Part shown: piece by piece, positions 28,325 through 54,645 of the stretch
Position numbering within the stretch: position 1 is the stretch's first letter
Layout: each line of letters starts with the position of its first letter
NCBI GenBank assembly: GCA_020725425.1
Contig: DYFA01000027.1
Location: forward strand, 24,131 to 88,130
Source: Aneurinibacillus sp.
GTDB lineage: Bacteria > Bacillota > UBA5301 > DYFA01
DNA: 64,000 nt
Direction of reading: 5' to 3'
Made by a program: the position numbers and the translations under genes
Notes under the pieces: generated by a model
Told to the model about the DNA's origin: nothing
The model's input: the letters and a program-made list of their open reading frames with translations, nothing else
Databases searched by the model: none

Positions 28325-29161
28325 TCATTCCCGGGTGATGAGGCACGGGCCGAGGATCTCCGGACCCGTGTGGCTGGCGATCACCGGGGAAAGGCGGACC
28401 AGCGGCACCGGCATCCCGGCGACGGCCTCCATCTCCCGGGCGAAGGCGGTCGCCTCCTCCAGGTTGTCTCCGTAGTGGAGGGCGATCTTCTCAATCCCCC
28501 GCCCGGCCCGCTCCTTCACAAGCTCGATGAGGCGCGCCCGGGCCGCCTTGGTGGTGCGGATCTTCTCCAGGGCCTCCATTGTCCCCGCCGAGTCGAACCA
28601 GATGATCGGCTTGATCTGGATGAGCGAGCCGAGCAACGCCTGGGCTCCGGAGAGCCGGCCCCCTTCATAGAGGTAGCGGAGGGACTCGACGACGAAGTAA
28701 GTCCGAGTCCGGGCGATGAGGTCGTCCAAGGCGCGGACGATCTCCTCTCGGCCGGCCCCGGCGTCCGCCATCTCCTTCGCCCTGAGGGCCAGGGAGGCCT
28801 CGCCGAAGCCGCTCTGGCGGGAGTCCACGACGGAGACCCGGTCGGTTTCGAGCAGTTGCCTGGCGAGGTTGGCCGAGTTCAGCGCCCCGGAGATGCGGCT
28901 CGACAGCACGATGCAGATGACCTCGTCCCCTGCCTCCACCGCCGGCCGGAAGTGCTCGAGGAAGGCGTTGGGGTCCGGCTGGGCGGTGGAGAACCTGGCT
29001 CCCGCCCGCTGCCGCCGGTAGAACTCCGCGTAGGAGAGGTCGAACAGCTCCCGCTGGACGTTCTCGCCCTCCCGGACGTACAACGGCACGGCGGTAAGGC
29101 CGTGCTGGCCGTACCATTCCAGCGGCATGGAACAGGTGGTGTCGACGATGACCCTGATCAT
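28325..29161 (-). CDS. DegV-family fatty-acid-binding protein
   Basis: Typical DegV N-terminus MIRVIVDTTCSMP...GLTAVPLYV. GGAGGGA ribosome-binding site before the ATG at 29161. Confidence 0.8.
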   Translation of the reverse strand: MIRVIVDTTCSMPLEWYGQHGLTAVPLYVREGENVQRELFDLSYAEFYRRQRAGARFSTAQPDPNAFLEHFRPAVEAGDEVICIVLSSRISGALNSANLARQLLETDRVSVVDSRQSGFGEASLALRAKEMADAGAGREEIVRALDDLIARTRTYFVVESLRYLYEGGRLSGAQALLGSLIQIKPIIWFDSAGTMEALEKIRTTKAARARLIELVKERAGRGIEKIALHYGDNLEEATAFAREMEAVAGMPVPLVRLSPVIASHTGPEILGPCLITRE

Positions 29162-29270
29162 ACTGTTCCCTCCACGCAAAACGGACTTGACCGAATGACC
29201 GCTTGTTGCTTACTACGGCATTGGAAGGCGTAAACCTTCCGTGCATACTATCACCAAGGAGGCGATCCTT

Positions 29271-30479
29271 TTGCGGACCTGGGACCTGATCGTGGTGGGG
29301 GCGGGGCCGGCCGGCGCGGCGGCCGCCCGGGCGGCCGCCCGGGCCGGCGTCGAGACGCTGATCCTGGAGGCGGAGGAGTTTCCCCGGCCGAAACCGTGCG
29401 CCGGAGGTCTCTCGGCAGCGGCCCTGAAGGAGCTGGGGGAGCCGCTCCCGCCCGGAGTGGCGGGGCGGGCGTGCCGGGCTGTGCGGCCTCGCTACGGCGG
29501 CTTGGCGGTTACAGTGCGCCGGGAGGAGACGCTGGTCGAGGTGGTCCACCGGGACCGGTTCGACGCCTACCTGCTCTCCCTGGCCCGGCAGGCTGGGGCC
29601 GAGGTGAGGCACGGGACCCGGGTCACCGCCGCCGAGCCGGGGAGCGACGGGGTGACCTTGCGCACTGACCGGGGGACGTGGCGCGCCCGGGTGGTCGTGG
29701 GAGCCGACGGCGCCCGGAGCAGGGTCGGCCTGGCGGTCCGCCCGCCGTTCCCCCGCCGCGACCTCGGGGTGTGCCAGGTCGGGGAACTGCCCCTCCGCCC
29801 CCAGGAGTACGAAACCTTCTTCGTTGATGGGCTCGAGGTGTGGTACAGCAACCCGGAGAAAGGCTACGGCTGGATCTTCCCGCAGGAGGCCGGCCTGAAC
29901 GTAGGCATCGGCAGCGTCGCCCGGTACTTGCCTTCGCCCCGCCGCGAGCTGTCGCGCTTCCTGGCCCTGGCCGGGCTCCCGGAGCCGGCGGCGGTCAAGG
30001 GGGCAGTCCTGCCGCTCGGCGGGCGGAATCATCCCGGGCAGGCCGCGCGGGTGCTGCTGGCGGGGGACGCTCTGGGCGTGGCCGACCCTTTCACCGGTGA
30101 GGGTATTCGTTATGCCCTGCTTTCGGGGCGGCTGGCTGGCGAGTGCGCTGCCGCGGCGCTTCACCGCTCCCCCGCCCACCCGGACCTCTCCTCCTACCCC
30201 GCGCGGTGCTGGGAGAGCTTCGGGGCCGACCTCCGGTATGCCCGCCTCTTCGCCCGCCTCTACCTCTCGCTCGATCAGCGGCTCAACCGCTTGGTCTTCC
30301 GCCACCCCGGTCTCTTCTCCCGGGTGGCTGACATCATGCAAGGGAAGGGCACCTACCGCGATCTCGTGGGGAAGCTCGGGAGTCATCTGCCCGGCTACTG
30401 GCTGCGGGGTCTCATGAACCGCCAAACCCGTGAGTTTAGTCGAACAATTTCGGAAAGAACGTTGCGACCACCAGGATGA
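29271..30479 (+). CDS. Geranylgeranyl reductase family FAD-dependent oxidoreductase
   Basis: FAD dinucleotide-binding motif DLIVVGAGPAGAAAARAAARAG..LILE. TTG at 29271 lies 8 nt after AAGGAGG. The track ATG at 29241 has no ribosome-binding site. Confidence 0.7.
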   Translation: MRTWDLIVVGAGPAGAAAARAAARAGVETLILEAEEFPRPKPCAGGLSAAALKELGEPLPPGVAGRACRAVRPRYGGLAVTVRREETLVEVVHRDRFDAYLLSLARQAGAEVRHGTRVTAAEPGSDGVTLRTDRGTWRARVVVGADGARSRVGLAVRPPFPRRDLGVCQVGELPLRPQEYETFFVDGLEVWYSNPEKGYGWIFPQEAGLNVGIGSVARYLPSPRRELSRFLALAGLPEPAAVKGAVLPLGGRNHPGQAARVLLAGDALGVADPFTGEGIRYALLSGRLAGECAAAALHRSPAHPDLSSYPARCWESFGADLRYARLFARLYLSLDQRLNRLVFRHPGLFSRVADIMQGKGTYRDLVGKLGSHLPGYWLRGLMNRQTREFSRTISERTLRPPG

Positions 30480-31692
30480 TGGTCAGGGCGATCATCACCC
30501 AGGTTGTCACCCAGGCCACCACATTGTACCAGCGTGAATTGACGTAGTTGCCCATGAGTCTGCGGTCGTTGATGAGAAGCTGCATATAGATCAGGATGAA
30601 TGGCAAAAGGATGCCGTTCGCCACCTGGGACAGGTACATCATCAGGATCAGAGGCGCGTTGGGAATCAGAACAATCCCGACTGCGAGAACGATCAAGCCG
30701 GTGTACAAGCCGAAGAACCAGGGTGCCTCTTTGAACGTCTTGTTGACTCCGGATTCCCAGCCCATACCTTCACAGACGGAGTAGGCAGTCGATAACGGGA
30801 GAATCGAGGCAGCGAAGAGGGAGGCGTTGAACAGCCCAAAGCCGAACAGCGCAGCCGCATGTTTGCCTGCGAGGGGACGGAGGGCCATCGCAGCGTCTTT
30901 GGCGGTCTCGATTTGGATGCCATGTGCGAAGAGAGTAGCCGCGCAAGCCGCCACGATGAACCAGGCTACGATGTCCGTGACGAAACATCCCAGCACCACG
31001 TCCAGGCGGGAGTATCTGTAATCGCATACCCGGATCCCCTTCTCGACGATGGACGATTGAAGATAGAACTGCATCCAGGGAGCGATCGTCGTTCCGACCA
31101 TGCCGATGACCATCATGATGTAGCTCGGCTCAAAGCTAAAACTTGGAGTTACCGTGGCACGCAAGAGTTCTCCCCAGTGTGGCTTGGCCATGATGCCGGA
31201 GATGACGTATGCCACGTAGAACACGCACGCTGCTAGAAAGACCTTCTCAACGGTCTTGTATGTCCCCTTGACCACCAGCCACCATACCAGGACTGCCCCG
31301 AGCGGCACGGTGATGTACTTGGAGATACCAAAGACTTCTCCCGCAGCCGCTACCCCGGCGAAGTTACCGACCGTGTTGGCCAGATTGGCGATCAAGAGAC
31401 CCAAGAGAAGGTAAAACGTGGTCTTGACCCCGAAATTCTCCCGAATAAGGTCAGAGAGGCCCTTGCCGGTTACGGCGCCCATCCGGGCTACCATTTCTTG
31501 AACTACGATCAGCGCGAATGTTATGGGGACAAGGGTCCAGAGCATAGCTGCGCCATAATGCGCCCCGGCCAGAGAATAGGTGGTAATGCCGCCGGCGTCG
31601 TTGTCGACGTTGGCGGTGATAATCCCTGGACCTACCACACTCAGCCAGAAGAAGAGGCTGCCGAGCCTTGCTTTCACATCTCTCACTAGCAT
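30436..31692 (-). CDS. mntH: NRAMP-family divalent metal transporter (MntH-like)
   Basis: 11-12 transmembrane helices and an NRAMP N-terminal signature region (VVGPGIITANVDNDAGGITTYSLAGAHYG). Confidence 0.75.
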   Translation of the reverse strand: MLVRDVKARLGSLFFWLSVVGPGIITANVDNDAGGITTYSLAGAHYGAAMLWTLVPITFALIVVQEMVARMGAVTGKGLSDLIRENFGVKTTFYLLLGLLIANLANTVGNFAGVAAAGEVFGISKYITVPLGAVLVWWLVVKGTYKTVEKVFLAACVFYVAYVISGIMAKPHWGELLRATVTPSFSFEPSYIMMVIGMVGTTIAPWMQFYLQSSIVEKGIRVCDYRYSRLDVVLGCFVTDIVAWFIVAACAATLFAHGIQIETAKDAAMALRPLAGKHAAALFGFGLFNASLFAASILPLSTAYSVCEGMGWESGVNKTFKEAPWFFGLYTGLIVLAVGIVLIPNAPLILMMYLSQVANGILLPFILIYMQLLINDRRLMGNYVNSRWYNVVAWVTTWVMIALTIILVVATFFPKLFD

Positions 31693-31713
31693 GGCGTCAT
31701 CTCCGTTTCGCTC

Positions 31714-32985
31714 CTAGACCCGACGGAGGCGCTTCCGGCGGTTGGCGAGGTAGACGTCGTCCACCACGTCGTGGATGAGGGCCATGCCGAGCAGGTGCTG
31801 GCCGGCGTCGACCACCGGGATGGCCAGGAGGTCGTACTTGGTCATCACCTCGGCCACCTCGTTCTTGTGCGCATCCTCCTTAACGAAGAGGACGTGGGGG
31901 TCCATGATCGCCCAGAGCGGCTGGTCCGGCTCAGCCACCACCAGGTCGCGCAAGGAGACCACGCCGATCAGGTGCTGCTCCCCGTCGACGACGTACAGAT
32001 AGTAGGCCGAGTCCGGGTCCGGCTTCAGCCGCCGTAACTCCTCGATGGTTTGAGCGGTAGTGAGCTCCTCCCGGAAGGAGAGCACGTCGGTGGTCATCAG
32101 GCGCCCGGCCGTGTCCTCCTCGTATTCGAGCAGTTCCCGGACGTCCTCTGCCTCCTCGTCCTCCATCTGCTCCAGGAGTTCCTGAGCCCGCCGTTCCGGC
32201 AGCTCACCCAAGATGTCGGCCGCTTCGTCGGCCGGCATCGACTCCAGGATGTCGGAGGCCTTCTCTCCCCCCAACTGTTCCAGGACATCGGCCTGCGCTT
32301 CCGGCTCCATCTCCTGCAGGGTCTCGGCGGCCACGTCCACGTTCAGGGCGGACATGACCGCCGCCCGCTCCGGCCGGTTCAGGGCCTCCAGGATGTCGGC
32401 TAGGTCCGCCGGGTGGAGCTTGCTCAGCCGCTCGTACGGCACAGCGAGCTTGACCTGGTGGGGGGCGCTGGTGATGGGTTCCACGTCCCGCCAGGAGATG
32501 AAGTAGTCCTCGATCGGCTTGGGCAGGAGCTTATCCAAGCCATGGACCAGGCGGCGCAGCCCCAGCCGGCGCAGCAGGCCGCGCAGGCCCACCTCGACGG
32601 CCACGAGCCGCAGCACGCCGTTGATCTCGGCCAGCTTGATGTCGTTGATCCGCCGTACCTTCAGCCCGTTCAGGTCGACGATCTGCTTGTCGAGGAGGTC
32701 CCGCTTGAGATGGAGCAGCTTCTCCGGGAGGGATTGCTCGTCGACCTCGTCTTTCTGCACCGAAAGGGTCAGGTACTGGCGGACGAGCACCTGGATGAGC
32801 GACCAGGGAATCCTCCGGAGGGCGCCGCGCTTCGTCCGCACCTCCAGCCCCACCACCGGCGGAAACTCCTCCCCCGGCTCGACCAGGATATCGTTCACCC
32901 TGCCCAGACGCTTGCCGAAGCGGTCGACCACTGTCTTTTCGAGTAAGCGACTCGCGTGGATCTCAGGCACGATGGCGACGGACAT
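31714..32985 (-). CDS. Soluble PRC-barrel + MgtE-N + CBS-pair protein (no channel domain)
   Basis: MgtE intracellular N domain (LADILEALN..., acidic helix) and a tandem CBS pair. It lacks the MgtE transmembrane domain. ATG at 32985 after GGGAGGTGAG. Likely co-transcribed with the NRAMP gene. Confidence 0.7.
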   Translation of the reverse strand: MSVAIVPEIHASRLLEKTVVDRFGKRLGRVNDILVEPGEEFPPVVGLEVRTKRGALRRIPWSLIQVLVRQYLTLSVQKDEVDEQSLPEKLLHLKRDLLDKQIVDLNGLKVRRINDIKLAEINGVLRLVAVEVGLRGLLRRLGLRRLVHGLDKLLPKPIEDYFISWRDVEPITSAPHQVKLAVPYERLSKLHPADLADILEALNRPERAAVMSALNVDVAAETLQEMEPEAQADVLEQLGGEKASDILESMPADEAADILGELPERRAQELLEQMEDEEAEDVRELLEYEEDTAGRLMTTDVLSFREELTTAQTIEELRRLKPDPDSAYYLYVVDGEQHLIGVVSLRDLVVAEPDQPLWAIMDPHVLFVKEDAHKNEVAEVMTKYDLLAIPVVDAGQHLLGMALIHDVVDDVYLANRRKRLRRV

Positions 32986-32994
32986 GGTTCTCAC

Positions 32995-33255
32995 CTCCCG
33001 GCATCAAAAAGCCCCCGGCTTACTTTCACCGGGGGCGGAAACTTACATGCCTCGGGTACGGGCAGGCGCCTAGCCCCCCGTCTCCGACCTGTTTCCGGCG
33101 GTGGAAGAATGGCCGATTCCCAGAAAGACAAGCTGCTGCGGACTGTGACACGGGCTCCCGTCCATCTGCCACCACCACCTTAGGCCTGGCTGGTTCTTAA
33201 GCCGATACGCTCACGCTCCACCAATAACCTACTACGCCGACCAGCGCTTGTCAAC
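32995..33255 (-). promoter_or_regulatory. Promoter plus about 225-nt structured leader ending in an intrinsic terminator just 5' of the ribosome-binding site
   Basis: Minus-strand TTGACA (33254..33249), 17-nt spacer, TAGGTT (33231..33226). The leader then ends in GCCCCCGG-ugaaaguaa-CCGGGGGC followed by UUUUUGAU, about 8 nt before GGGAGGUGAG-ATG. Confidence 0.35.
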
Positions 33256-33289: not shown

Positions 33290-33319
33290 ATTGACAGACA
33301 AGCCCGGCGTGCCTTAGAA
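33290..33319 (+). promoter_or_regulatory. Sigma-A-type promoter of the trp operon
   Basis: TTGACA (33290-33295), 18-nt spacer, TAGAAT (33314-33319). Confidence 0.6.
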
Positions 33320-33342
33320 TCCTTTCAAAGGCAGTGGCGCCC

Positions 33343-33448
33343 GGAGGGGAGCCAGCCGAGTCGAGGTCACAGGTTGAGTGGAGAAGAGACGAGCAAAGAG
33401 CAGGCAGGACCCGTTCAGGTCTGACTCTTTGGAGTCGGGCCGTTTTTG
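33343..33448 (+). promoter_or_regulatory. trp leader attenuator: GAG-triplet array followed by an intrinsic terminator
   Basis: Nine GAG triplets at 33343, 33348, 33357, 33362, 33375, 33380, 33385, 33390 and 33397, mostly 2-nt spaced. These are followed by the nested hairpin GACCCG..GACUCuuugGAGUC..GGGCC and then UUUUUGUU. Confidence 0.45.
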
Positions 33449-33484
33449 TTACCTCGTCCTTCTCCCGCCCCGGAGGTGGGAAAG

Positions 33485-35803
33485 GTGTCCGCAGACTTGT
33501 CCGTCCTGCGGGAGTCGCTTCCGCTCGTCACCGCCCCGCACCCGGAGAGGGTCCGGATAAGGTTAGGGGAGGTGGTCGCCGGCGGCCCGGTCCCGGTGGT
33601 CATCGCCGGCCCCTGCGCCGTGGAGAGCCTGGCGCAGCTCCTCCAGACCGCCCGGCAGGTCAAGGCCGCCGGCGCCCACGGCTTGCGCGGCGGCGCCTTC
33701 AAGCCCCGCAGTTCCCCCTACAGCTTCCAAGGTTTGGGTCGGCCAGCTCTGGAGATGTTGGCCGCGGCCAAGGTCGAGACGGGTCTCTTCCTGACCATCG
33801 AGGTGATGCGGGAGGCTGAGGTCGACCTGGTGGCCGACTACGCCGACCTGCTCCAGATCGGCGCCCGGAACATGCAGAACTTCGCCCTGCTGCGGGCCGT
33901 GGGAAGGTGCCCCCGCCCGGTGCTGCTCAAGCGGGGGATGGCCGCCACTGTCCGGGAGTGGCTGCAGGCCGCGGAGTACATCCTTGCGGAAGGGAACCCC
34001 AGCGTCATCCTTTGCGAGCGCGGAATCCGCACCTTCGAACCGTGGACCCGCAATACCTTCGATGTCGCCGCTATCTCCCTGGTGCGCAACCTGTCCGGAC
34101 TGCCGGTCTTCGCCGACCCCAGCCACGCCGCCGGCCGGCGGGAACTCGTTCCCCCTCTGGCCCGGGCCGCTCTGGCGGCGGGGGCCGACGGCCTCCTGCT
34201 CGAGGTTCATCCCGATCCGTCGAGGGCGCTCTCCGACGGCGACCAGTCGCTCACCCTGGAGGAGTTCGCAAACCTGATGCGCGGCCTGGCCCCGTTCTGC
34301 GCCGGCCGGGAGCCGGTTTCCCGCAGGAGCCGGCCGGCGGGGATCAGCCCGGCAGCCGGTGAGTTCCCGGAACTGGCGGCCCGCGGCTACCGCCACGCCC
34401 CGGTCTTCACCCAGTTCACCAGCGACGAGCTTACGCCGGTGGGGATTTTCCGTCGCCTGGTGCATCAGGGGCCCGGCTTCCTCTTGGAAAGCGTGGAGTC
34501 CGGGGGAAACGGAGTCGGCCGGTACTCCTTCTGCGGTGACCGCCCGCTCCTGACCCTGACCGCCCGGGGCCGCCGCCTGGAGCAGAAGGGGCCCGGCCGG
34601 CTCGAGGAGGCGTCGGAGGGCGACGTCCTGGACCGGCTGCGCGAGCTCCTGGAGGTGTTCCGCGTGGCGCCGGTCGAGGGGTTACCCCGCTTCTACGGGG
34701 GAGCCGTGGGCTATTTGGGCTACGACTACGTACAGGCGTTGGAACCCATCCCTGCGACCGCCCCGGACCCGCTGGGGCTGCCGGACTCCTTCTGGCTGGT
34801 GCCGGAGCGACTCGTGGTCCTGGACCACGTCACCGGCGCGGTGACAGTGATCATCCTGGCGCCGACGGACCGGGAGGGGTACGAACGGGCCTCATCCCTC
34901 CTCGAGGCCACCCTCGCCGAACTGCGCCAACCGTGCCCGGCGCGGGAAGCGAAGCCGGAACCAGCTGGAGCCCTCCTCTCTTCGGTCTCCCAGGCGGAGT
35001 TCTGCACGGCCGTGACGAAGGCCAAAGAGTACATCGCCGGGGGTGACGCCTTCCAGGTGGTGCTCTCCCGGCGGCTGACCACCCCCTACGCCGGCGACGC
35101 CGTTGAGCTGTACCGGGCCCTGCGCTCCGAGAACCCTTCGCCCTACCTGTTCCTCCTCGACTGCGGCGGTTTCCACCTGGTCGGCTCCTCCCCGGAGATG
35201 CTGGTGCGCCTGGAGGGAACTACGGCCGAGATCCGCCCGCTGGCAGGGACCAGGCCTCGGGGCCGGGACAGCGAGGCCGACCGGGCCCTTGAGGCGGAAT
35301 TGCGGGCTGACGCCAAGGAGTGCGCCGAGCACGTCATGCTGGTGGACTTGGGCCGTAACGACCTGGGGCGGGTCTGCCGGTTCGGGAGCGTTCAAGTGCC
35401 GGAGTTGATGGGGGTGGAGCGGTTCTCCCGGGTGATGCACCTCGTCTCCCGCGTCACCGGCGAGCTGGCGCCGGGCCAGGACGCCTTTTCGCTGCTCAAG
35501 GCGGTCTTCCCCGCCGGGACGCTGACCGGCGCCCCGAAGGTGCGGGCGATGCAGCTCATCGCCGAACTGGAGCCCTTCCAACGCGGCATCTACGGCGGGG
35601 CGGTGGGGTACGTCGGGTTCAACGGCAGTCTGGACGCCTGCATCGCCATCCGCACGGCGGTCCTCTGCGACGGCCGGGTCAGCGTGCAGGCCGGAGCGGG
35701 GATCGTCGCCGACTCCGACCCGGAGCGGGAGTACGCCGAGACGGCCCACAAGGCGGCGGCCGTTCTCGCCGCCGTCCGCCGGGCGCAGGAGGGACGGTCA
35801 TGA
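33485..35803 (+). CDS. trpE: Fusion protein: DAHP synthase (class I-beta, AroG/KdsA-like) + anthranilate synthase component I (TrpE)
   Basis: N-terminal [10 protein letters not shown]...[19 protein letters not shown]...IGARNMQNF...LLKRG...[10 protein letters not shown]...[10 protein letters not shown] matches the unadorned I-beta DAHP synthase core. A roughly 30-aa linker is followed by the TrpE body (LLESVESGG...GRYSF...[15 protein letters not shown]). One continuous ORF. GTG at 33485 after GGAGGTG. Confidence 0.85.
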
Positions 35804-54439: not shown

Positions 54440-54645
54440 GTCTCTGCCCCGCCCCGCGGCGGGGCGTAAAGAAAGCGCCTGTTCCCTTGAGTGGAAAGGC
54501 GCCGGACAGGCCGTTTCTCATCTCTCAGGAACTGCTTCCTGCAGGATTTGGCACCGCACGGCCGGGCCGCCGGTTGCCGAGGCTTCATCGGGCCAGTCCC
54601 TCCACCTCTCGCGATGAGACCTTTGTGGTATGCGGTTGTAGTTGT
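54440..54645 (-). promoter_or_regulatory. SAM-I (S-box) riboswitch with terminator-like expression platform
   Basis: Minus strand reads CUCAUCgcGAGAGGUGGAGGGACUGGCCCGAUGAAGCCUCGGCAACC...GUGCGGUGCCAAAUCCUGCAGGAAG...GAGAUGAGA, which matches the SAM-I core and P1 pairing. It is followed by GGCGCC...GGCGCUUUCUUUA. Confidence 0.8.

Follow-up and report, generated by a model that had tools for sequence, protein, structure and literature searches.

The window analyzed here is a 64,000-nt stretch of an Aneurinibacillus sp. genome (assembly GCA_020725425.1, contig DYFA01000027.1, positions 24,131 to 88,130 of the forward strand), and coordinates without further specification refer to it. On its minus strand, a leader of ∼235 nt precedes two genes, open reading frame (ORF) 1 and ORF2. 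ORF1 (31714–32985, minus strand, 423 aa) codes for a channel-less protein with a PRC-barrel, an MgtE_N domain and two CBS domains, as assigned by Pfam, and ORF2 (30436–31692, minus strand, 418 aa) for a predicted NRMT/NrmT-type Nramp-related Mg2+(/Mn2+) transporter (Pfam Nramp, E = 8e-100). Within the leader lies a further ORF of 31 codons, preceded by a Shine-Dalgarno sequence of its own (termed uORF, for upstream ORF), which was overlooked in an initial annotation made from the DNA letters alone. Our comparison of this leader with those of related and distant operons suggests, with an estimated probability of ∼0.6, that it attenuates transcription of this NrmT-type magnesium-uptake operon in a ribosome-dependent manner, by means of a leader peptide.

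Joint transcription of ORF1 and ORF2 as one operon, as proposed in the initial annotation, is supported; the gap between the two genes is 21 nt. A Pfam search found no MgtE membrane domain (PF01769) in ORF1. Its best solved relatives are the cytosolic domains of MgtE (2YVY, E = 7e-38), the matches in the Protein Data Bank (PDB) cover the cytosolic domain only, and the >5600 homologues of ORF1 mostly share its domain set. The best PDB match of ORF2 is EleNRMT of Eggerthella lenta (7QIA, 392 bits, E = 3e-116), when compared with 87 bits or less for the classical Nramps (MntH/DMT structures). NRMT proteins differ from classical Nramps in helix 1, where DPGN is replaced by DAGG (the Asp is kept and the Asn becomes Gly), and in helix 6, where an Ala becomes Thr and a Met becomes Ala (PMC8806188). 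ORF2 reads NVDNDAGGITT in helix 1 and GTTIAPWMQ in helix 6, and in the alignment it was identical to EleNRMT at the NRMT binding-site positions.

The ORF1-ORF2 pair agrees with the NrmT/NRMT magnesium-transporter operons (Shin 2014, PMC4072509; EleNRMT, PMC8806188) in its genes and their order, in domain content and in the binding-site residues, and by this comparison it belongs to that already known group. Shin 2014 (PMC4072509) defines NrmT as an Nramp-related Mg2+ transporter, and reports that most nrmT genes adjoin a gene for a homologue of the MgtE cytoplasmic N-terminal domain and that nrmT operons often have an M-box riboswitch upstream. The same text already speculates that the ancillary MgtE-N/CBS protein is a regulator of the transporter, so that the idea of ORF1 as a cytoplasmic regulator, which was also voiced in the initial annotation, is not new. 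As far as the available text of these reports goes, the operon of the window differs from the NrmT/NRMT operons described so far in that ORF1 has an N-terminal PRC-barrel, unmentioned for the ancillary protein, and in that a uORF leader stands where the described operons have an M-box or no recognised leader element.

The promoter of the leader consists of the -35 hexamer TTGACA (33249–33254, minus strand) and the -10 hexamer TAGGTT (33226–33231, minus strand), both read from the sequence and separated by a 17-nt spacer. A consensus scan did not list it, because TAGGTT fits the -10 consensus at only 3/6 positions. The proposal of this promoter in the initial annotation nevertheless holds up in relatives: all 14 related leaders have TTGACA or TTGACT at the equivalent place, and, equally spaced from it (16–18 nt further downstream), a -10 hexamer that reads TAGGTT, TATGAT, TATTAT or TATAAG. 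We infer that transcription starts near 33220. The related operons are orthologous to that of the window (54–91% protein identity), come from uncultured, mostly Bacillota-like genomes and have unrelated upstream neighbours. The leader, with the same core, is conserved in 14 related loci.

At its downstream end the leader carries an intrinsic terminator (33003–33036, minus strand), with a stem-loop at 33036–33011 (GCCCCCGG-N10-CCGGGGGC; 9 pairs, 8 of them G-C; -20.5 kcal/mol) and the U-tract TTTTTGAT at 33010–33003. This confirms the strong G-C hairpin noted earlier just before the ribosome-binding site. The Shine-Dalgarno sequence of the first structural gene, GGGAGGTGAG (32990–32999, minus strand), follows it, is invariant in close relatives and precedes the ATG at 32985. 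Most of the related Bacillota-like leaders also have a terminator downstream of the uORF; these terminators were assigned by hand, and the T-run is interrupted or weak in loci L005 and L007. A position directly beside the ribosome-binding site is not universal, since the terminator lies 100–370 nt upstream of the structural gene in L091, L092 and L094.

The uORF (33070–33165, minus strand; 31 codons and TAG) would encode MDGSPCHSPQQLVFLGIGHSSTAGNRSETGG, which starts MDGSPC. Its Shine-Dalgarno region, AAGGTGGTGGTGG (33169–33181, minus strand), is invariant among close relatives, and AGGTGGT or GGAGGTGG is found 5–9 nt upstream of the uORF start in all Bacillota-like, mgtE-type and porin-type leaders. 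In the related operons the conserved core lies 80–135 nt downstream of the promoter. This best-conserved part of the sequence (AGGTGGT, 5–9 nt, ATGGACG NNN GCCC NNRT) corresponds to the Shine-Dalgarno sequence, the start codon and codons 2–6.

The variation within this core is that of a translated peptide. Conservation is limited to the first five or six residues (Met-Asp-Gly/Ala/Asp-Ser/Gly-Pro), and the peptides of the relatives start MDGSPY, MDASPS, MDAGPS or MDAIPG in frames of 21–41 codons. Synonymous codons alternate at these positions: the Pro is encoded by CCT (50), CCG (18), CCC (6) or CCA (5), the Gly by four codons, and an Asp at position 3 by GAC (36) or GAT (11). Among close relatives the frames are open over 28–32 codons, and TAG, TAA or TGA falls in the same alignment column. 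In the uORF of locus L001, a +1/-1 indel pair shifts the frame in the middle of the ORF and restores the position of the stop codon.

A uORF was also present in distant orthologues (37–47% protein identity), most of them from Bacteroidales. It was found upstream and in sense orientation in 63/72 loci, when compared with 0/72 in the antisense control and 0/72 in the coding-region control, and it has 10–17 codons and lies ∼90–200 nt upstream of the gene. The peptides start MDDGPA (26 loci), MEEGSS (11), MDEGPD (6) or MDDDPA (5), with others at the remaining loci; the 11 loci with the MEEGSS variant are among the orthologues without an MDxxP uORF. In Bacteroidales, MEEGSS (ATGGAAGAAGGCTCGAGT) and MDDGPA (ATGGACGACGGCCCTGCG) have the character of the peptide in common, but not the nucleotides. 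A further variant, MQDDGGPG, was found in a Mahella sp. (locus L120). The 9/72 distant loci without a recognisable uORF include metagenome-assembled genomes (MAGs) of Chloroflexota-like (Limnocylindria), Limnochordaceae and Verrucomicrobiota affiliation. Loci L011, L012, L013 and L063 (PRJNA950955) are titled Betaproteobacteria, Bacteroidota, Patescibacteria or Chitinophagales, yet they are close relatives of the Bacillota-type operon; the labels of these MAGs look inconsistent with gene content and leader type, and the bins may be mislabelled or contaminated.

An exact DNA-pattern scan of metagenome contigs, for a Shine-Dalgarno sequence and an MDxxPS uORF, returned 25 loci, ∼16 of which look genuine. 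The scan placed the uORF before full-length mgtE (L097/L102 and L099), before a CNNM/CorC-type gene of a low-GC organism (L096/L101/L109/L110), before a gene for an OprB-family porin that is followed by an NRMT-like Nramp gene (L104 and L108), and, twice in tandem, before an HMA-domain gene and a porin gene (L105, L114 and L116). In the tandem arrangement, a uORF reading MDAGPSS... precedes the HMA-domain gene and one reading MDDGPA... precedes the OprB-type porin gene, each with its own Shine-Dalgarno sequence and a hairpin like P1 (see below). The tandem uORFs are at positions 2030 and 2620 in L114, 758 and 1367 in L116 (reverse strand), and 199 and 492 in L105 (reverse strand). Judged by their predicted products, the genes associated with the uORF serve metal transport, mainly that of Mg2+, and they are of the same kinds that M-box riboswitches and MgtL control elsewhere.

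These data suggest that (i) the leader very probably carries a translated regulatory uORF; and (ii) such uORFs precede several kinds of metal-transport gene. A literature search returned no description of a uORF or leader ORF before mgtE or nrmT, nor of the peptide strings, with a partial coverage of subscription journals that leaves novelty short of proven; the uORF leader before magnesium-transport genes is apparently undescribed.

The initial annotation had proposed a riboswitch or an attenuator. The attenuation architecture stands (a conserved leader followed by an intrinsic terminator, of the leader-peptide kind), but the riboswitch reading is unsupported, because the conserved core is the beginning of a small ORF (its Shine-Dalgarno sequence, its start codon and codons 2–6) and is conserved like a translated peptide. 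In line with the earlier failure to match the leader to M-box, yybP-ykoY, ydaO or other aptamers by eye, the Rfam search that had been recommended gave no match to these or other families at gathering thresholds, nor at E <= 10 on a 601-nt stretch. Rfam detected no M-box (RF00380) in 40 orthologue loci, and in the orthologues without an MDxxP uORF no M-box was found in its place. The leader has no unusual fold energy (z = -1.05), and a structured-aptamer reading was rejected on this value and on the codon structure of the core; resemblances seen by eye to M-box P4–P6 and to c-di-GMP-I (GGACGCAAAGCC) were not supported by covariance models. Across the whole 64-kb window, Rfam gave a single match at the gathering score, an unrelated SAM-I riboswitch (RF00162) at 54515–54620 of the minus strand (88.8 bits, E = 9e-20).

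The M-box (ykoK, RF00380) has the same location as the uORF leader, upstream of mgtE-N/nrmT operons and of mgtE, and it often acts through an intrinsic terminator just before the gene (PMC4072509). However, the M-box is a three-helix metal-binding aptamer, whereas the conserved core of the present leader is a uORF that reads as translated. The riboswitch candidate termed 'mgtE motif' (SRC-65-1) is likewise a conserved leader, distinct from the M-box, before an mgtE-annotated gene, but it is reported only from Thioalkalivibrio, one gammaproteobacterial genus, and is described as a multi-stem RNA whose P4 holds the Shine-Dalgarno sequence and AUG of the main gene, with no uORF described (PMC11109978). 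The two elements are set apart by that description.

The initiation region of the uORF is predicted to pair with a segment of the uORF itself, forming a hairpin termed P1. Its 5' strand comprises the Shine-Dalgarno region, the start codon and codon 2 (GGUGGUGG...AUGG), which pair with CCAU...CCACCGCC; the 3' strand (GGCCATTCTTCCACCGCC, 33097–33114, minus strand) spans codons 18–23. The energy of the duplex was -27.6 kcal/mol, when compared with ∼-20 kcal/mol for shuffles, and P1 was stronger than the shuffled controls in most lineages. A helix equivalent to P1 was found in L092, L094, L097, L099, L105, L114 and L116, with altered sequences in L092 (GGUGGCGA/UCGCCGCC), L094 (GGUGAAAG/CUUUCACC) and L114 (GGGAGGUGGUGCUAAUGGAC/GUCCAUUGCUCACCUC). 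It is absent from the subgroup L015/L093/L098, in which the N-terminus of the uORF is kept. The 3' strand of P1 is a feature at the level of RNA, because its nucleotides are conserved though L001 reads them in another frame.

A second hairpin, ACGGGGGGC-TAGGC-GCCTGCCCGT (33058–33081, minus strand; -12.9 kcal/mol), holds the stop codon of the uORF in its loop, and inspection of Bacteroidales leaders by eye showed analogous hairpins at the stop codon. Both helices appear in the RNAalifold consensus fold, the stop-codon hairpin at columns 164–191. The covariation in orthologous leaders that the initial annotation had advised looking for was present in part, as changes on both sides at some pairs of P1 and as some covariation at the stop-codon hairpin.

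Such structures are also what would be expected if the leader sensed its signal as RNA alone, either as a riboswitch of a new class or by responding to Mg2+ directly, with P1 and its conserved internal loops as the aptamer and the ORF as incidental or secondary. P1 is a long irregular hairpin, conserved with some compensatory changes, and is directly followed by the terminator, at the position that M-box riboswitches have in other nrmT operons (PMC4072509). The codon usage at residue 2 points the same way: Asp2 is encoded by GAC in 75/79 non-redundant uORFs and by GAT in 4, even in AT-rich Bacteroidales. As AUGGAC pairs with GUCCAU/GUUCAU within the uORF, the preference for GAC is explained in part, and part of the core is also constrained at the RNA level; in addition, early elongation may be affected specifically by this codon or its tRNA. 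However, an aptamer would not account for invariant positions that track codons, with wobble at third positions, for the MEEGSS and MDDGPA leaders being alike in peptide character and not in nucleotides, for the compensating frameshifts that preserve the position of the stop codon, or for the L015/L093/L098 subgroup retaining the uORF N-terminus without P1. Together with the ordinary fold energy and the empty Rfam search even at E <= 10, these observations make a sensor of RNA alone unlikely.

The well-described cases of RNA-level control of bacterial Mg2+ uptake are the M-box, the Salmonella mgtA leader RNA and the enterobacterial leader peptides MgtL and MgtP, and leader-peptide control by Mg2+ has so far been seen as an enterobacterial speciality. 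In MgtL, translation aborts within six residues at the N-terminal EPDP, more so at low Mg2+, and mgtA is thereby induced, as stated in a preprint (bioRxiv 10.1101/2021.02.02.429294), which cites Park 2010, Gall 2016 and Chadani 2017 for this intrinsic ribosome destabilization. A leader-peptide attenuator in the window could work in a related manner. Passage of the ribosome past the acidic, proline-containing Met-Asp-x-x-Pro start, or its failure to pass, would set the fold of the leader RNA, and this fold would decide between a stop at the terminator and read-through into the operon. The likeliest signal would be cytoplasmic Mg2+ acting on the translating ribosome, as in MgtL; we give Mg2+ sensing by ribosome destabilization at the uORF somewhat less than an even chance. 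More read-through at low Mg2+ would be the physiologically sensible direction, and it is left as a physiological expectation because a pairing that opposes the terminator could not be established.

The uORF and MgtL of Salmonella and E. coli are both short ORFs in the 5' leader of an Mg2+ transporter gene, both have an acidic, proline-containing stretch right after the initiator Met (MEPDPT in MgtL, MDDGPA or MDGSPC in the uORF), and the read-out of translation through alternative leader RNA structures that operates in MgtL is proposed for the uORF as well. In contrast, MgtL is enterobacterial and more rich in Asp, Glu and Pro than the peptide of the window, controls mgtA and acts through Rho-dependent termination, whereas the uORF is found in Bacillota-like, Bacteroidales and unassigned metagenome lineages with porin genes, precedes nrmT operons, mgtE or CNNM/CorC, and would act through an intrinsic terminator or through sequestration of a Shine-Dalgarno sequence. 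A further difference from MgtL is that the initiation region of the uORF is locked by pairing with an internal stretch of the same ORF. By-eye comparison of MEPDPT... with MDGSPCHSPQQ... or MDDGPA... gave no alignable sequence, and the resemblance is one of composition and position only. We therefore regard the putative uORF attenuator as analogous, not homologous, to MgtL.

The order of elements in the leader, with an intrinsic terminator behind a short ORF and its Shine-Dalgarno sequence, is also that of the trp, his and Bacillus subtilis bmrB-bmrCD attenuators. In trp/his-type attenuators, however, the regulatory codon run is near the 3' end of the ORF, whereas the conserved and presumably sensing codons of the uORF are at its extreme N-terminus, and no clear counterpart of the 2:3 antiterminator was identified in the uORF leader. 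A small ORF controlled by an Mbox in mycobacteria is a nearby published item, distinct from the uORF leader.

Several observations weigh against a leader-peptide attenuator that senses Mg2+. We found no antiterminator better than chance: in several lineages, with mononucleotide shuffles as controls, pairing of the terminator 5' half with the 3' end of the uORF or with the uORF Shine-Dalgarno region was at the level of the shuffles, and the 3' strand of P1 paired with the terminator 3' half no better than shuffles did. Constrained minimum-free-energy folds kept the terminator of the window with a ribosome placed at the start codon, in the middle of the ORF or at the stop codon. Masking of the uORF start removed the terminator only in L091 and L092, and L008, L093 and L098 differed again. 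The peptide of the window, MDGSPC, has only two Asp, Glu or Pro residues (D2 and P5) in its first six, when compared with the four of six residues that define a destabilizing sequence in an E. coli survey (bioRxiv 10.1101/2021.02.02.429294). After the Met, the Bacteroidales peptides count 3 such residues in MDDGPA, 4 in MDDDPA, 4 in MDEGPD and 2 in MEEGSS.

The genes behind the uORF add to these points, as one of them is of the CNNM/CorC type. One report lists CorC among Mg2+ uptake systems (PMC8806188), another calls it a putative efflux pump (bioRxiv 10.1101/2021.02.02.429294), and if CorC exports Mg2+ the opposite regulatory logic would be needed. According to Shin 2014 (PMC4072509), the NrmT of A. 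capsulatum, which lacks an M-box, behaves mainly as an Mn2+ transporter, so that the signal could be Mn2+ or general cation status. Finally, every carrier found is either the genome of an uncultured organism or a metagenome contig.

Translation of the uORF would likewise be expected if its product were a functional small protein that, for example, regulates the transporter or joins it as an accessory subunit in the manner of MgtR, MgtS and MgtU, with the terminator setting the ratio of the small gene to the operon. Enterobacteria have small proteins that modulate Mg2+ transporters, mycobacteria have a conserved small ORF, with no role assigned, that is associated with the Mbox, and the uORF has a good Shine-Dalgarno sequence and a conserved start and stop position. 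However, its conservation is confined to residues 1–6, its length varies between 10 and 41 codons and its composition between hydrophobic (MDDGPASILINSLI) and basic or Gly-rich, the C-terminal two thirds in L001 are in another frame than in the window although the nucleotides are conserved, and the tandem uORFs of a single operon (L114 and L116) have unrelated C-termini; this makes such a function quite improbable. A terminator controlled by a protein, either ORF1 as an Mg2+-sensing autoregulator or another RNA-binding factor, with the uORF supporting at most, is very improbable: ORF1 does have the Mg2+-sensing domains of MgtE and always accompanies the leader in Bacillota-like loci, but the occurrence of the uORF before full-length mgtE and before CNNM/CorC and porin genes, where ORF1 is missing, speaks against control by ORF1, we know of no nucleic-acid-binding role of MgtE_N or CBS pairs, and the leader showed no repeat or palindrome of the kind that proteins bind, albeit no dedicated repeat search was run.

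In Bacteroidales, the uORF would be coupled to a different output. The MgtE-N/CBS gene of loci L020–L089 has a conserved AAGGAGG(T/C)G ∼10 nt before its ATG. In the examples inspected by eye, the AAGGAGG pairs with an upstream CCUCC segment, and the stretch just after the stop codon of the uORF can pair with the same CCUCC segment, which would constitute a four-segment switch on translation. Such a strong conserved Shine-Dalgarno sequence is unusual in Bacteroidales, because Bacteroidota generally do not use these sequences, and AAGGAGG(T/C)G may mainly be a part of the regulatory hairpin. The output in Bacteroidales appears to be translational and not transcriptional, with the uORF placed before a hairpin that sequesters the AAGGAGG of the main gene.

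Taking both arrangements together, we tentatively suggest that MD(D/E/G/A)(G/S)P leader peptides could be nascent peptides that sense Mg2+ and form a widespread class so far unrecognised, in Bacillota-like genomes, Bacteroidales and other lineages. Their read-out would be an intrinsic terminator in Bacillota and the sequestration of a Shine-Dalgarno sequence in Bacteroidales. Such a class, if it exists, would cover nrmT operons, mgtE, CNNM/CorC and porin-Nramp operons, where the M-box or MgtL act in other bacteria. It would mean that the ribosome is a common Mg2+ sensor that evolved more than once, it would explain how nrmT and mgtE are regulated in the many cases without an M-box, and it would offer a compact element (∼200 nt in Bacillota, ∼120 nt in Bacteroidales) for the analysis of nascent-peptide effects on early elongation. 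For annotation, the leader is a warning that candidates for 'orphan riboswitches', with a conserved core and a terminator, can be uORFs.

Downstream of the operon, a gene for a flavin adenine dinucleotide (FAD)-dependent oxidoreductase (29241–30479, plus strand) converges on the Nramp gene and overlaps its 3' end (30436) by ∼44 nt; beyond the stop codon of the Nramp gene, no candidate terminator was listed. A DegV-family gene (28325–29179, minus strand) lies beyond it, and both neighbours are also present in L001 and L007. On the other side, the promoter of a divergent gene, TTGACA-18-TAGAAT (33291–33320, plus strand), is close to the consensus (11/12 matches). The divergent leader (33291–33445, plus strand), in which Rfam found no match, has at least seven GAG triplets at ∼33350–33405, five of them 2–4 nt apart (GAGtcGAG...GAGtgGAGaaGAGacGAGcaaaGAG), and a terminator-like hairpin with a T-run at 33418–33441, just before an ORF at 33446. 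The run of triplets resembles a binding site of TRAP (trp RNA-binding attenuation protein) before a tryptophan-pathway gene. The ORF (33446–35803, plus strand, 785 aa) reads by eye as a DAHP-synthase-like N-terminal half fused to anthranilate synthase component I (TrpE), and in L003, L004 and L005 a stand-alone TrpE of 496–523 aa (Chorismate_bind) is found at the position of the 785-aa ORF.

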